A DNA stretch of 64,000 nucleotides, from positions 35,402,001-35,466,000 of the forward strand of contig OZ024756.1 of assembly GCA_964016885.1 (NCBI GenBank). Reading direction: 5' to 3'. The position numbers were made by a program, and so were the translations under genes. Shown here piece by piece: positions 7,144 to 58,162 of the stretch (the stretch's first letter is position 1; every line of letters begins with the position of its first letter). The notes beneath the pieces were generated by a model that did no database searches, was not told where the DNA came from, and saw only the letters and a list, made by a program, of their open reading frames with translations. Source of the DNA: Eledone cirrhosa. Taxonomy: Eukaryota.

Positions 7144-7333
7144 AGGAAAAGAGTCAGGACTCCGACGGCTGAGCTCCGGCCGTTTCCACATGTAGATCCG
7201 AACTATTCGGATCTAGCTGTCGAAACGGCCGGAGCTCAGCCGTCGGGGTCCTGATTTTTTTCCTATTACCCACTCTCCTACCCTAAATATCGAGTACTCT
7301 GGTGCGTTATGGTCCACCACACTTTCTTTGTTA
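7144..7333 (+). mobile_element. PLE end family A fold-back element
   Basis: Inverted arms centred at ~7204 plus a one-sided tail; embedded in (TA)n; half-hammerhead GAAACGGC..GCCGTC. Confidence 0.8.
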
Positions 7334-7604
7334 TATATATATATACATATATATATGTGTATGTATATATATATATATATATATATACACACACGCACAC
7401 ACACACACACGCACGCACACACACACGCTTACACCTCCACTTATTCTCTCTCACACACACACATAGACCAGTTCTAACACGAGATAACATCTATCCCCCA
7501 CATTTACGTATAGACATATCTTCTCACACTCACACACACACACTCAAATACTTACACCTTCATGCATTCTCCCACACACTTAAACAGGCATGTACAAAAA
7601 AAAA

Positions 7605-7880
7605 ACCCTTTTAAAGGGAGACTACTCTTTATCCACCTAACCTAACTCTTTGACATTAGAGATAGAACAGATACTCTATACCATTTCCTGTCAGCATGAC
7701 TTGGCAAGCTATTTAGAACACTGGTTTAACCGCTTTACTTCCCTCCGAAGAAGAGATATTATCTCGAAAATTAAGGAGATTTAAACAAATCTAAGGTAAA
7801 AGACTAATTGTCAACAATATCTTTTGCATTTGCATTCTTTATTCTATGTCCATACCTGCATTGTTTTGGCTTTATTATAC
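7605..7880 (+). mobile_element. old PLE 3' end with degenerate hammerhead (7741-7779)
   Basis: cct-CCGAAGA-agagata t tatctc-GAAA-atta-agg, one substitution from the CTGAAGA core. Confidence 0.45.
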
Positions 7881-9102
7881 ATATACAAACGTTTATATAT
7901 ATATATATATATATATGTGTGTGTGTGTATATATAAATACATATATATAAACACACACACACACACACACACATATATATATATATATATATATATATAT
8001 ATATATATATATATATATATATATATATACATACACATATATAAATATTATGTTGGTTCATGAAGTCAGTTTTAATTTGTATGTAACTTAATAGTTTTCA
8101 GTCAGTAAACTGTCTTTAAATCACTCAAGATATCAATTGATCAACAAAGAGTTTTCTCCTGCTTCATCTAAATAAATTATTTACTGTTCTGGTATTCAGT
8201 TAAAAATCTGGTATTCAGCCTTAAAAATCGATATACTATTCCTTAATTTACTTTCCCATCGATCACAAACTCGATATTAATTTCTATCGCTAATGTTATT
8301 CTATTGTTTGTTTTTGTGTGGTTTTTTCTCTCTCGTTGTACAAACGAAATAATCTGTTTTAACAGCCAAACTCTCAACTTACAATAATACCATTTCAAAT
8401 GGCGGACCCAGTTGAAATATTATTGTTCTGTTGTTGCCTTATTAACCTAGTTTGGTTGGCTGGTTGGTTGGTTGGTTGGTTAGTTCGTTGGCGTCTCTCT
8501 CTCTCTGCCCCCCCCCCTCTCTCTCTCTCTCTCTCTCTCTCTGTATATATATATCCACCCCCCTCTCTCAAGTGTGAACCTAATACTTACACTTTGTACT
8601 GCACTCTTCGTTATTGTTTTTGTTTTCTGTTTTAACTATCTCTCTCTCTCTCTCTCTCTCGTCTCTCTCTCTCTCTCTCTCTCTCTCTCTCTCTCTCTCT
8701 CGTCCTCTCTCTCTCTCTCTCTCTCTCTCTCTCTCTCGTCCTCTCTCTCTCTCTCTCTCTCGTCCCTCGCTCTCTCTCTCACTCTTTCTCTCTGGCTCTA
8801 TCTCTCTCTCTTTGTCTACAATGGTGTCCCCCTCTGTCCACTATACAACTGTTGACCCTTTATAAGTGCACTTTACGAAACAGTTTTTCCGCGACCAAAC
8901 TCCACCTCCAAGTCAACCCAAAGTTGCAGTAAATGACATTTGCCCCCAAGATGACACTAACATTGGTATCGAACCCGAGGCAAACTTTTTAACCATTCGG
9001 CCGTGCTGCGTCTACGACACCATATTAGCACTAAGAACAACAGCAATAATATCAACAACAACAACAACAACGACGTCAACAGCAATAATCACATCACAAA
9101 TA

Positions 9103-9475
9103 TTGGTTTCTAATTTAGACACAAGGCCAACAATTTTTTTTGGGGGGGGAGGGGAATGTCGATTAAATTGACCCTAGTGCATTACTGGTACTTCAATTTA
9201 TTGCCCTCGTAAGGATGGAAGACAAAGCTAACCTCGACAGGTTTTGAACTCAGAACGTAAAGAGCCATAACTAAATGCATTACTGGACAATATGCTTTGC
9301 AGCATAGAGTTACGGCCCTTTACGATCTGAGTTCAAACCCGCCGAGATTACTGGTACTTTAATTTATCGGCCCCGTAAGAATAAAAGGCAAAGTTAACCT
9401 CGGCAGGATTTGAACTCAGAATGTAAAGGGGCGTAACTCTATGCTGATAAATCTTGTCCGACGCTCTACCGATTA
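9103..9475 (-). mobile_element. SINE cluster (two minus-strand copies with a short plus-strand head between them)
   Basis: B-box-like gagttcaaa/tttgaactc, central tttatcg.ccccgtaag domain and 3' ggcc..ttagaaacc end. Confidence 0.85.
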
Positions 9476-10875
9476 CAGATAATCCACCTCTCTGATTTCA
9501 TCACGTGACACATATTAACAGCACTACCGCAAAACAATGCTACAATATCACCACTGTAGCATGAACGAGAGCATCAACACCACCACCATTGTCACCATTG
9601 TCATCACCACCACCACCACCACCACCACCACCATCGTCATCGTCATCGTCATTGTCATTGTCATCACCATCAACATCATCATCATCGCCGCCATCATAAA
9701 CACAATGTCCACCATCATCATCATCGATAACATCACCACAACGACACGCTGCAGCGACGCACAAAACAACGACACACCACCACCACCACCAACAACAACA
9801 ACAACAACAACAACAACATCAGATGTAACAACAGTCTAAAGTTTCACGGTTCACGTGAAATGCTCTACTGCGTTCAACAGAGCAATAAATGACTCGTTAA
9901 AGACAGAGAGGGGGGGGGGGAGAAAGTGACTGGTGGGTGGTGGGGTGAGGGGAGGTTATGGGGCGGGAGAGAGTGTGAGAGAGTGAGGAGTTTAAGGAAA
10001 GAGAGAGGGTCGGAGTGAAAAGAGAGAGAAAAAGAGAGAGAGAGAGAGAGAGAGAGCGTGCGTGCGTGAGATAGAGCGAAAGCGAGCCAGAGAGAGAGAG
10101 AGTGAGAATAAGGGAAGGAGAGAGTATAAGCGAGAAAGAGAGAGAGGGGGGTGGGTGGGTGGAGAAAGAGAGAGTGAGAGAGAGAGCGGGGGAGAAAGCG
10201 TGAGAGAGAGATGGGGAGAAAGAGGGAGAAAGCATGAGAGAAAGTGATAACGAAAGAGAGAGATAGAGATAGATAGATAGATAGAGAGAAAGAGAGAGAG
10301 AGAAAAAAGGCTGTTGCATGTATCAATGACGTCATACATATCAGCCACGATGGTCGTCTGCTGCCAAAACTCCACAATCACTACAATGACTACATTATGC
10401 TTTCAAAGACGAATTGATATTTACCGTGGAGTTTTGAAACGGCGCCAACACAGCATCTTTAAATTAACATCTACCAATAACATTTGTTATTGGGGGTTGC
10501 GTGCGTGCCTCTGTGTGTGTGTGTGTATGTGTGTGTGTGTATATGTGAGTGTGTGGACATGTGTGTGTGTATGTGGACATGTATTTTTATACATGCAACC
10601 CTCCTGCTTATACATAAATCTCTCTCTCTCTCTCTCTCTCTCTCTCTCTCTCTCTCTCTCTCTCTCTCTCTCTCTCTCACTATATATATATATGTATATA
10701 TATAATATCGTGAGTTGCCTATTTTTATGCAAGTATCTATGTATGTATTTATGTATTATGTATGTATATGTATCTTTGTATGTATACGTATGTAAAAAGT
10801 AAACACAAATAACAAAGCCAACGACTCAGTACACATATATACACATATATACTATGTCTGTGTGTTTTATATATA

Positions 10876-55889: not shown

Positions 55890-55960
55890 TATATATATAT
55901 ATATATATATATATATATATATATATGCATACGTACATACATACATATTATATTATATTA

Positions 55961-56154
55961 TATTATTTATGTTCATACAAGGAACAAAGTGCTATCTAAG
56001 GTTTCAAGGCCGATTATTGACCAGATCTCCAGATTGTAAGAGCCTTGAAGATCAGATCGCAATTTTGATCTCTCTTACAATCTGGAGATCTGGTCAATAT
56101 TGGACCTTGAAACCTTAGTTAACGCTTTTGTTCCATGTATGAACATAAATAATA
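55961..56154. repeat. imperfect ~190-bp fold-back, probably another PLE end family
   Basis: tatttatgttcataca..ccagatctccagattgtaagag / ctcttacaatctggagatctgg..tgtatgaacataaata. Confidence 0.75.
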
Positions 56155-57329
56155 TATATAATATATATAATGTATATAATATATATAATATAAATAATAT
56201 ATATAATATATATAATATAAATAATATATATAATATATATAATATATCAGTTCTCTTGCCATTGAGCACTGTTTTCCTGTTTTTCCTTTTACACACACAC
56301 ACGCAGAGACACACACACACATACATACATATACATATATATATATATATATATATATATATATATATATATATATATATATATATATAGAGAGAGAGAG
56401 AGAGAGAGAGAGAGAGAGAGAGAAGATATATATATATATATATAAATATATATATAGATATATAGATAGATAGAGAGAGAGAGAGAGAGAGTGAGAGAGA
56501 GAGAGAGAGAAGATAAATATATATAGAGATATAGATATATATGTGTACATATATATAATTGTGTGTGTGTGTGTGTGTGTGTGTGTGTGTGTGTGTGTGT
56601 GTGTGTGTGTGTGTGTATGTGTGTATATGTGTGTATGTGTGCATGTGTATGTAAACAGCAACACATATATGCACACACACACACACACACACACACACAC
56701 ACACACACAAACACACACACGTGTACATATCCGAAAACAACTTCGTTTTATATTATAGATTAGTCTTTATCTACATTTATTATATAACTGTTTATTGATG
56801 ATTGATTGATTTGTTCAACATGCCTGATATCAATAAGATGGTCAAGAACTCCATGTAGTGATCGATAAGGTGTTGATAGATTCCATGAAGGAATCGATGA
56901 TGTAAAATATTTTGGAATTCTTGATCTAAGTAAACTGATTAATTAGGGATAGCACCAACAGAACGCGATTGAAAACAAAAGTATTAATATATATATATAT
57001 ATATATATATATATATATATATATATATATATATATATATATATATATATATATATCTTTTGGAAAGCATAAGAACTGTGAAACCAGTAAAGGAAATAAA
57101 TAAATACTCCAGTTGCATTTTCGATTTCTTTTCCTTATATATATATATATATATATATACATATATACATATATATATATATATATATATATATATATAC
57201 ATATATATATACATTATATATATATACATATATATATATATATACATATATATATATATACATATATATATATATATATATATATATATATACTGCTAGC
57301 GTAAACCTCTTCAAATGAAGTCGATGTTT

Positions 57330-57572
57330 ATTACGGTATGTCGAATCTATTTATCTATAAAACTGTTTATATTGTATTTTGTCTGATGAAGGCATAGCAT
57401 ATTGTTAATATGATATCCCCGAAATATATATAATGAAATAAATATGGTTTTATAAATATAGTTTTCCATTTATTTAATATTGTAAATATACTCCAAATAT
57501 TTGTCGAGTGCTTTTATATCAGTTATAAATATTTACTAGTTGTAACCCAACAATTTAAAATATAACTTTACA
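57330..57572 (+). mobile_element. PLE end family D, linear copy with hammerhead core (57383-57430) and tail
   Basis: Nearly identical to the reverse complement of 30646-30885. Confidence 0.85.
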
Positions 57573-58162
57573 TGTATATATATATATATATATATATATA
57601 TATATATATATATATATATATATATAAAGTTTAAACAAGGTTCAATGAATAAATTAAAGAATGAGTTTTACAATAAATTGGAAGCACTCAACGGAAATGG
57701 TTTTCCGGAGTTATTAATATTAATTCAAAATATTAACAAAATTAGACATTCGTGTGATCAAATATACTTGATTACACGAATGTCTATTTTTGTTAATATT
57801 TTGAATTAATATATATATATATATATATAACTTTGGATATATATATATATATATATATATATATAACTTTGGATATATATATATATATATATATATATAA
57901 CTTTGGATATATATATATATATATATATATAACTTTGGATATATATATATATATATATATAACTTTGATAACTTTCGGCTAGTATTGGCTAACTTAATAA
58001 GCACCACTATATCTTTGAGACTGGCTGGAGTGCTCCAGGGATATATATATATATATATATATATAAAAACAAATAACGAAACGAAATTAAATTTCGTTTC
58101 GTTTGTAACTCACTTTTGTATATATATATAAGATCAAAAGATGGTTAAAAGAGTTCCATGTA

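Follow-up and report, generated by a model that had tools for sequence, protein, structure and literature searches.

We analyzed a 64,000-nucleotide stretch of DNA from Eledone cirrhosa (GenBank assembly GCA_964016885.1, contig OZ024756.1, positions 35,402,001 to 35,466,000 of the forward strand), hereafter the window, for a small bulged hairpin in the tails of Penelope-like elements (PLEs). The GC content of the window is 34%, and simple repeats make up about 32%. Short elements lie between runs of (TA)n, and many of them consist of an inverted arm, a turn, a sense arm and a one-sided tail. Insertion into (TA)n, an inverted truncated copy and a one-sided tail are traits of the Hydra clade, the C-terminal endonuclease-positive (EN+) PLEs of Craig, Yushenova, Rodriguez and Arkhipova (2021, PMC8557442), and all three are found in the window elements. 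An example is the family A fold-back at 47159-47352 (minus strand), which is composed of the inverted arm, the turn, the sense arm with the 3′ half of a hammerhead, the hairpin (47200-47225, minus) and a 46-nt remainder of the tail, with (TA)n on both sides. In the hairpin, RCTC is followed by an upper stem whose paired sequence is specific to each family, by a bulge of 2 nt on the 3′ side (1-2 nt in the window) and by GAGY-RC; in this copy, these parts are ACTC, a 4-bp upper stem, a TT bulge and GAGT-AC. It is carried by ten short PLE end families in the window (A, B, C, D, D2, E, F, G, H and I), and is called hairpin 1 below.

In family A, the hairpin is also present at 23807-23832 (plus), with other copies at 6702, 7272, 18001, 21242 and 26671 (plus) and at 22456, 39671, 42324 and 48191 (minus). 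The 5′ stem is mutated in the copy at 43204-43229 (minus), and the truncation point of another copy lies inside the hairpin (55568-55596, minus). Family B possesses a hammerhead core from CTGATGA to GAAAC (54287-54310, plus) and the hairpin at 54353-54373 (plus), with other copies at 26914 and 49203 (plus) and 42524 (minus). In family C, a core at 27888-27925 (plus) precedes a GCTC/GAGC-AC hairpin with a TA bulge (27982-28004, plus), whose second copy is at 20090-20112. A further family C hairpin (21422-21444, plus) has a private G at 21425, where about 97% of host reads have C. The family D core (57383-57425, plus) and hairpin (57490-57511, plus; TC bulge) have a second hairpin copy at 30706-30727 (minus), beside a perfect palindrome (30741-31056). 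The D2 hairpin (23552-23570, plus) has no clear bulged upper stem, and the left arm of its insert is D-type. In family F, the upper stem is 6-7 bp with a TT bulge (39508-39535, plus); a degenerate F-like hairpin is located at 56250-56269 (plus), after the fold-back 55971-56144. The remaining hairpins are on the minus strand: H (57684-57711; upper stem of 6 bp, TT bulge), I (55714-55735; 4 bp, 1-nt bulge; hammerhead core 55785-55808), E (19632-19677; 26-nt loop; core 19753-19795) and G (21633-21704; 50-nt loop, terminating in GAGC-AT).

The hammerhead cores lie upstream of the motif on the same strand, and the polarity of the motif is fixed to that strand. By pattern search, cores were predicted in families B, C, D, E and I and behind an endonuclease remnant. 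Family A has only the 3′ half, the family F core is degenerate, and no core was found within the short arms of families G and H. The remnant (59391-59693, minus; 100 codons at 59394-59693) is a 5′-truncated PLE endonuclease C-terminus of the Hydra-clade type. Its 3′ region of about 1.2 kb ends with a hammerhead core of family-D architecture (58176-58223, minus), and the copy enters TA about 45 nt past GAAA. We read this 3′ terminus as a short end without its own hairpin. Two related TA-flanked ends (59710-59930 and 62172-62260, minus) lie directly upstream of the remnant, and one of them contains a degenerate hammerhead followed by 80 nt without a hairpin. The segment 58108-58154 was considered as the hairpin of the remnant and rejected: it starts 22 nt after GAAA, and its loop contains a TA run.

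With the paired pattern RCTC-N-GAGY-RC, 23 matches were obtained in the window, every one inside the short TA-flanked elements (11 in family A, 4 in B, 2 each in C and D, and 1 each in D2, F, H and I; eight families). The original prediction, made from the letters of the window, had named nine examples, and all nine were found where, and on the strand on which, it had placed them. The unmasked sequence holds 22 matches, versus a mean of 3.7 (maximum 11) in 60 segment-wise dinucleotide shuffles of that sequence. At the family level, the excess of the bare pattern is modest, about twice chance (8 versus 3.7). When an upper stem of at least 3 bp and a 3′-side bulge of 1-2 nt were included, 20 of the 23 matches (seven families) were retained, versus 0.37 (maximum 2) in the shuffles. 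Thus, the claim that the pattern exceeds shuffled sequence holds by far for the complete hairpin and only modestly for the bare pattern counted by family. The upper stems are TACT/AGTA, TGC/GTA, TGTA/TACA, TGGTTC/GAACCA, CAA/TTG, CGGAAA/TTTCCG and GTCC/GGAC. The loops had been described as differing in sequence and length. The spacer does vary, from 6 to 50 nt, but it is not free: it holds the family-specific upper stem and the 3′ bulge. With the bulged-hairpin description, the two long-loop families E and G were then found. Outside the motif, only 1 of the 45 window family pairs (D-D2) was clearly similar (p<0.01), and the rest could not be aligned. The tails are accordingly not simple homologues of one family, in line with the original prediction.

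The endonuclease remnant has 2590 relatives at E≤0.001 (phmmer) and matched the profile of its relatives with a probability of 99.6%. It gave no Pfam match, a word-index protein search was also empty, and no relatives were found in viral contigs. An alignment of 12 of the 150 listed relatives was used for an external search, from which a set of 109 loci was assembled (80 kept of 496 metagenome matches and 29 from genome contigs). The 29 loci from genome contigs are read as host-animal DNA. L081-L109 are animal PLE loci inside several bacterial genome bins, with 18 of the 29 loci in one bin, and this is probably host DNA carried in. Two external loci, L007 (705 amino acids) and L050 (732 amino acids), possess open reading frames (ORFs) with RWK, DKT and CxCX5C and without CCHH, as judged by eye against the definitions in PMC8557442. 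A reverse transcriptase (RT) with a C-terminal GIY-YIG endonuclease and Hydra signatures is found in these two loci; the window has only the 100-amino-acid remnant.

According to the available text of PMC8557442, Hydra-clade elements likewise target (TA)n, carry a canonical hammerhead behind the ORF, and have inverted 5′-truncated copies and a one-sided tail. Because the window families share the motif detected by the hairpin model, because a D-like hammerhead lies behind the remnant, and because they target TA, we tie them indirectly to the Hydra-type ORF. They are probably members of one clade, the Hydra PLEs. Therefore, the families called unrelated in the original prediction are unalignable in their tails, except for D-D2, and probably not unrelated in origin. 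Among the six new Hydra consensus sequences of PMC8557442 (File S7), inspected by eye, three contain the exact motif. Both the coral consensus Hydra-2_Amil and the sea cucumber consensus Hydra-2_Ajap have it at their 3′ ends. In Hydra-1_Ajap, it occurs twice at the 5′ end; the sequence begins 2 nt before hairpin 1, and a second hairpin (hairpin 2) is located ahead of the ATG. The Hydra section of that paper, in the text available, describes no such motif. A search of its supplement with six 9-mers, in which line breaks can hide matches, gave eight matches; four were in Hydra hairpins, and the other four were inside Naiad or Chlamys sequences without the hairpin context. The motif so far looks specific to the Hydra clade.

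Among the 68 endonuclease-linked hammerheads with 125 nt of downstream sequence, 33 are followed by the motif, versus 0.02 in shuffles. Covariation was analyzed in 34 external families of less than 80% identity, anchored on RCTC and GAGYRC only. Upper-stem positions 1-3 were paired in 33, 30 and 27 of the 34 families, versus 25.0, 14.8 and 14.4 after shuffling (p=0.0005 each, the floor of 2000 shuffles). Only the register with a 2-nt bulge pairs; no pairing signal was detected in the bulge registers 0, 1, 3 and 4. The bulge letters were TT in 23, TA in 7 and TC in 4 families. The endonuclease tree took 33 of 35 rows (L010, which contains a nested other family, and L039, a chance long-gap match, were dropped). 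On this tree, the fewest changes of the pair, the 5′ side and the 3′ side were 3/3/3, 12/10/9 and 10/9/9 at positions 1-3. Most upper-stem changes are accordingly two-sided. Thus, compensatory change in the upper stem of hairpin 1 exceeds what shuffling and phylogeny would give.

The lower stem barely varies. Its first pair is GC in 68, AU in 1 and GU in 1 row of the model-fitted alignment, in which 99.6% of cells pair and which leans toward structure. Covariation had been proposed from the switch between A-U and G-C in this stem. Because the lower stem hardly varies, the switch is weak evidence and may be a single event; the strong evidence comes from the upper stem. A model built from 11 equal-length non-window hairpins ranked 23 window hairpins first among 28 matches, and 25 of the 28 are hairpins in elements. 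Because it was built from hairpins of equal length, the model missed the mutated copy at 43204 as well as families E, G and I. Plain inheritance or chance, with no structural role for the hairpin, would agree with the probable common ancestor of all carriers, with the near-invariant lower stem and with the family-level count of the bare pattern. However, on the tree the two sides of the upper stem change together many times and pair in one register only, and the flanking tails are unalignable in all but 1 of 45 family pairs at p<0.01. We regard this explanation as very improbable.

Arm ends in the window were taken from the printed alignments, and TA overlap was counted as element. Most of them lie 3-8 nt before the hairpin; the original prediction had placed the end of the inverted arm, in four families, about 4-11 nt before the motif and running into (TA)n. 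In family A, the arm ends at −5 in seven of nine fold-backs, once at −7, and once at −5 only with a 1-nt gap. The ends are at −8, −4 and −5 in family B, −7 or −11 in C, −5 in D, −3 in G, −5 in H and −4 in I. The lone arm of family E ends at −3 with a 3-nt gap and at −14 without the gap, and lone B and D arms end at about −8 to −12 when compared with other copies. The hammerhead-to-hairpin distance in the same families is 43-76 nt. The junctions of arm and TA flank often overlap by 2-3 nt.

Host reads were compared over the non-repeat sequence, leaving out the repeat 21230-21341. Family C molecules in these reads run into (TA)n behind 21418, 3 nt ahead of the hairpin at 21422. This departure was detected in 22 and 25 contigs (two runs of one sample) and in 238 and 232 reads (two runs of one study). 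The largest read-end peaks were at 21388/21391 and 21474, on AATT, and these would be the restriction ends of restriction-site-associated DNA (RAD) libraries.

In full-length relatives, the hammerhead comes first, and hairpin 1 begins 44-81 nt past GAAA. Hairpin 2 is located another 57-74 nt downstream, and the ATG lies 8-25 nt beyond hairpin 2 in 21 loci. The 68 hammerhead-linked hairpins are bimodal, with 51 at 44-81 nt, 15 at 113-134 nt and 2 beyond. To locate the short ends, we used copies without hairpin 1; 47 of them had a hairpin-bearing relative, and 41 of these were not cut by the contig end. In 18 of the 20 comparisons with an identity of at least 95%, which cover 12 of 13 reference families, the end lay 1-7 nt before hairpin 1. 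The position varies with a standard deviation (SD) of 1.6 nt when measured from the hairpin and 7.4 nt when measured from the hammerhead (r=0.98; 12 reference families). Ends set by the distance from the hammerhead were therefore rejected, and the claim that the signal is separate from the hammerhead was borne out. For the long ends, 37 copies with hairpin 1 only were collected. Fourteen had a reference with hairpin 2, one of which was a contig end, and 11 of the 13 usable comparisons placed the end 0-6 nt before hairpin 2; several were made against the 5′ repeat of the element itself. Thus, the insertion ends lie a few bases 5′ of each hairpin. Since short ends precede hairpin 1 and long ends precede hairpin 2, the tail length equals the hairpin spacing. 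This spacing is 57-74 nt in the external loci, and the tails are about 64-170 nt in the window families; the accessible text of PMC8557442 gives a tail of 30-40 bp for the Hydra clade and ascribes it to the endonuclease. The frequency of TA dinucleotides peaks at a distance of 2-8 nt upstream of hairpin 1, and at 6 nt they are present in 0.44 of the families. The linker from hairpin 1 to the long end often folds into an extra family-specific stem-loop, as observed in the tails of C, D, F and I and in L005 (3485-3520).

The best explanation, which we consider probable, is that the bulged hairpin, conserved across Hydra-clade PLEs and present twice in full-length relatives, would act in the RNA as a binding site of the RT-endonuclease and as an internal start site for target-primed reverse transcription. 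From the positional correlation, we infer that the protein binds the hairpin and that the hairpin sets the cDNA start. The comparisons support the view of the original prediction that a conserved structured signal, distinct from the hammerhead, positions priming or nicking; they refine it to what is probably one clade, to a bulged hairpin and to two copies, one per end. The endonuclease would cut both strands of the (TA)n target, and the RT protein would bind each RNA hairpin and start a few bases upstream, at a UA patch. Each nicked 3′ end of the target would pair by 2-3 bases with the UA patch upstream of a bound hairpin and prime cDNA. Hairpin 1 would serve one target end and hairpin 2 the other, and two RT subunits would probably be engaged, either on the same RNA or on two. 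Both cDNAs would run toward the 5′ end of the RNA, and their head-to-head joining would produce a fold-back whose arms differ in length by the hairpin spacing. The extra piece would be the one-sided tail, which contains hairpin 1. Hairpin 2 would never be copied into truncated inserts, and under this proposal the window shows only hairpin 1 for that reason. The polarity of the window fold-backs agrees with the proposal; both junctions read as cDNA starts.

More tentatively, the two hairpins may form a molecular ruler. A dimeric RT-endonuclease would bind both and prime both ends of a (TA)n double-strand cut upstream of each, so that the inverted pseudo-long terminal repeat (pseudo-LTR) and the tail arise in one reaction. 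This would be telomerase-like internal initiation with a portable start signal of about 25 nt.

Some window inserts have an unusual composition. The insert 18606-18830 (family E) consists of a 35-nt reversed tail-end (long-end) stub and a long sense arm that stops at the short end. In the insert 23365-23623, the left arm is of the family D type, and the right part is family D2 and starts near the expected hammerhead cut site; the insert is possibly a two-RNA chimera or two adjacent insertions. Both inserts fit two separate primings, and successive insertions would explain them too. The insert 21237-21313 (family A) contains the tail only; it extends from the short-end to the long-end position and is flanked by TA at each side.

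The hairpins might instead bind protein for packaging or translational control, with the ends set by TA microhomology in AT-rich linkers. The location of hairpin 2 just ahead of the ATG, the TA enrichment upstream of hairpin 1 and the 2-3 nt often shared between junctions and the TA flank would all agree with such a role. However, TA is present elsewhere in the linkers too, yet the ends follow the hairpin with an SD of 1.6 nt while the hammerhead distance ranges over 44-65 nt, and the TA peak is itself positioned relative to the hairpin. We consider this role doubtful as the origin of the ends; a translational function could coexist with the start signal.

A biochemical precedent for internal starts is the Poseidon element PAc of Anolis (Frangieh et al. 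2024, PMC11167929). As described in the accessible text, the PAc protein, a predicted dimer, cuts AT-rich DNA on both strands. It works on uncleaved RNA and starts at two internal sites, which lie downstream of the hammerhead and correspond to the tail ends in the genome. A stem-loop lies near the start, as with the hairpins described here. In contrast, PAc is a single element whose initiation occurs inside an AC-rich stem-loop within the ORF; the ends analyzed here are 5′ of the stem, in the untranslated region. No RCTC/GAGY motif was detected in the RNA stretch of about 95 nt given in the text of Fig. S1, and a covarying signal repeated downstream of each start is not mentioned in the available text of PMC11167929, although relevant folding may be shown in Fig. 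S2C.

If the hairpin were a roadblock or a processing signal, the RNA would be cleaved just upstream of it, or copying would pause and the template would switch, and the ends would be RNA 3′ ends as in ordinary non-LTR priming. A nuclease might recognize the near-invariant GCTC/GAGC-RC and its fixed bulge, and some of the window copies have their truncation point at the hairpin or within it (21242 and 55568). However, neither a catalytic core nor an Rfam match at E≤0.5 was detected in the three loci L005, L050 and L034, and the Poseidon precedent is internal initiation without RNA processing (PMC11167929, accessible text). We therefore regard this reading as quite improbable. On the window, the 150 Rfam matches listed of 529 were microsatellite-type matches below the gathering score.

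The main rival acts on DNA: the GIY-YIG endonuclease would recognize the hairpin in single-stranded cDNA or extruded DNA and cut a few bases upstream at TA, so that the ends are cut sites. PMC8557442, in the text available, ascribes the tail to endonuclease-mediated resolution of an intermediate, and the D. virilis endonuclease needed tail sequence for plasmid cutting, as cited in the accessible text of PMC11167929. The tail-only insert with the hairpin at 21242 begins at the short-end position, and the strand comparison of G-U and A-C counts does not tell RNA and DNA action apart. But a paired spacer varying from 6 to 50 nt together with a one-sided bulge is unlike a duplex recognition site. 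Short-end copies without hairpin 1 and long-end copies without hairpin 2 would each time need a longer DNA precursor, and in the one PLE tested in vitro, the tail ends were RT start sites on RNA (PMC11167929, accessible text). We judge cutting at the DNA level to be unlikely as the source of the ends.

Several observations weigh against the hairpin as an RNA start signal shared by the clade. Whole-tail folding z-scores range from 0.4 to −2.4, so that the hairpins are thermodynamically weak alone, and in families B, E and H the minimum-energy structure is not the full bulged hairpin. Hairpin 2 shows no significant upper-stem covariation (12 families, mainly one C-G pair), and none was seen in host DNA among the listed read-comparison rows (310 further rows exist). 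At an identity of at least 85%, only 25 of 41 short ends are within −8 to 0, which would be due to the fading of alignments where AT-rich sequence has diverged. Few long ends could be compared, because 23 of the 37 copies had no reference, and the two misses among them are at +4 and −43. The Hydra-type locus L051 (185-207 and 2671-2693) departs from the twin arrangement: it has one hairpin only, at a distance of 45 nt from the hammerhead upstream and 29 nt from the ATG downstream. Window families A-I are not physically joined to an ORF, and their tie to the Hydra-type ORF is indirect. In PMC8557442, the Hydra-1_Crog consensus contains near-matches only, and no hairpin was found in the Hydra-1_Amil and Hydra-1_Obim consensi, both of which terminate 30-50 nt past the hammerhead. 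In the window, the palindrome 22000-22376 has a hammerhead-like core and TA flanks with no hairpin in about 130 nt, and no hairpin was found in the available sequence at the hammerhead-like cores 30465, 31878 and 59850. These hairpin-free cores may belong to other PLE clades.

The palindrome 22000-22376 is 377 bp long and nearly perfect, and each of its arms carries a minimal hammerhead-like core. Within the interval 21945-22376, it may be extended on one side by 45 nt, which fold as a weak AC-rich stem-loop reminiscent of PAc. The palindrome may be a member of another PLE clade.

Small structured cis signals are read by the RT of the element itself in other systems, such as the 3′ UTR stem-loops of L2/UnaL2 and R2 and the bulged hairpin epsilon of hepatitis B virus (HBV). 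These signals lie within the copied region or template the primer. Our hairpin would work like such an RT-recognition signal; unlike those signals, it comes as a pair and is located 3′ of the start, immediately beyond the copied stretch. In telomerase RNA, protein-bound structural elements flank the template. A likeness would be one of logic, namely internal initiation on a short primer-matching patch framed by protein-bound structure; unlike in telomerase, the copying here is long and not reiterative. PLE RTs form the sister group of telomerase (PMC8557442, accessible text).

As far as the search extended, the feature is real and undescribed. The full-text literature, including the available text of bioRxiv 10.64898/2026.07.22.740005, contained no description of the motif; subscription papers and Repbase/Dfam notes lie beyond this search. 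The word "hairpin" has no occurrence in the main texts, as available, of PMC8557442, PMC3846280, PMC4209133 and PMC7229834. For the head-to-head repeats and the tail of PLEs, the accessible accounts conflict, as they invoke resolution by the endonuclease (PMC8557442), antisense self-priming (PMC3846280) or a pair of internal RT starts (PMC11167929). If the hairpin tells the RT where to start, the one-sided tail of these PLEs would be explained. A clade-wide hairpin whose two copies predict both ends within a few bases makes PLE end formation open to a direct mutational test, and offers a view onto the choice of an internal template start by the closest RT relatives of telomerase. In annotation, it gives a rule by which the true boundaries of Hydra PLEs embedded in (TA)n can be placed, and it is possibly a compact signal for programming where an RT begins.

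The letters GCTC...GAGC-RC are similar to those of the tRNA D-arm, and one tRNA-like repeat in L030 matched the loose pattern. A D-arm origin was not supported: a pyrimidine that pairs follows GCTC, the bulge is on the 3′ side, and ARAGORN detected no tRNA in eight of eight loci.

The window also contains SINE-like (short interspersed nuclear element) repeat copies at 9170-9600, 31150-31520 and 48480-48660, and this repeat presumably resembles the octopus SINE, a candidate relation. Two related inverted-repeat inserts of about 75 nt, similar to miniature inverted-repeat transposable elements (MITE-like), lie in TA runs (15885-15959 and 40100-40175) and carry neither hammerhead nor hairpin. Local tandem repeats are present at 1436-2243 (period of about 92 nt), 13299-13854 (about 190 nt), 24889-25880 (about 190 nt), 33387-33730 (about 95 nt) and 51970-52339 (about 61 nt).

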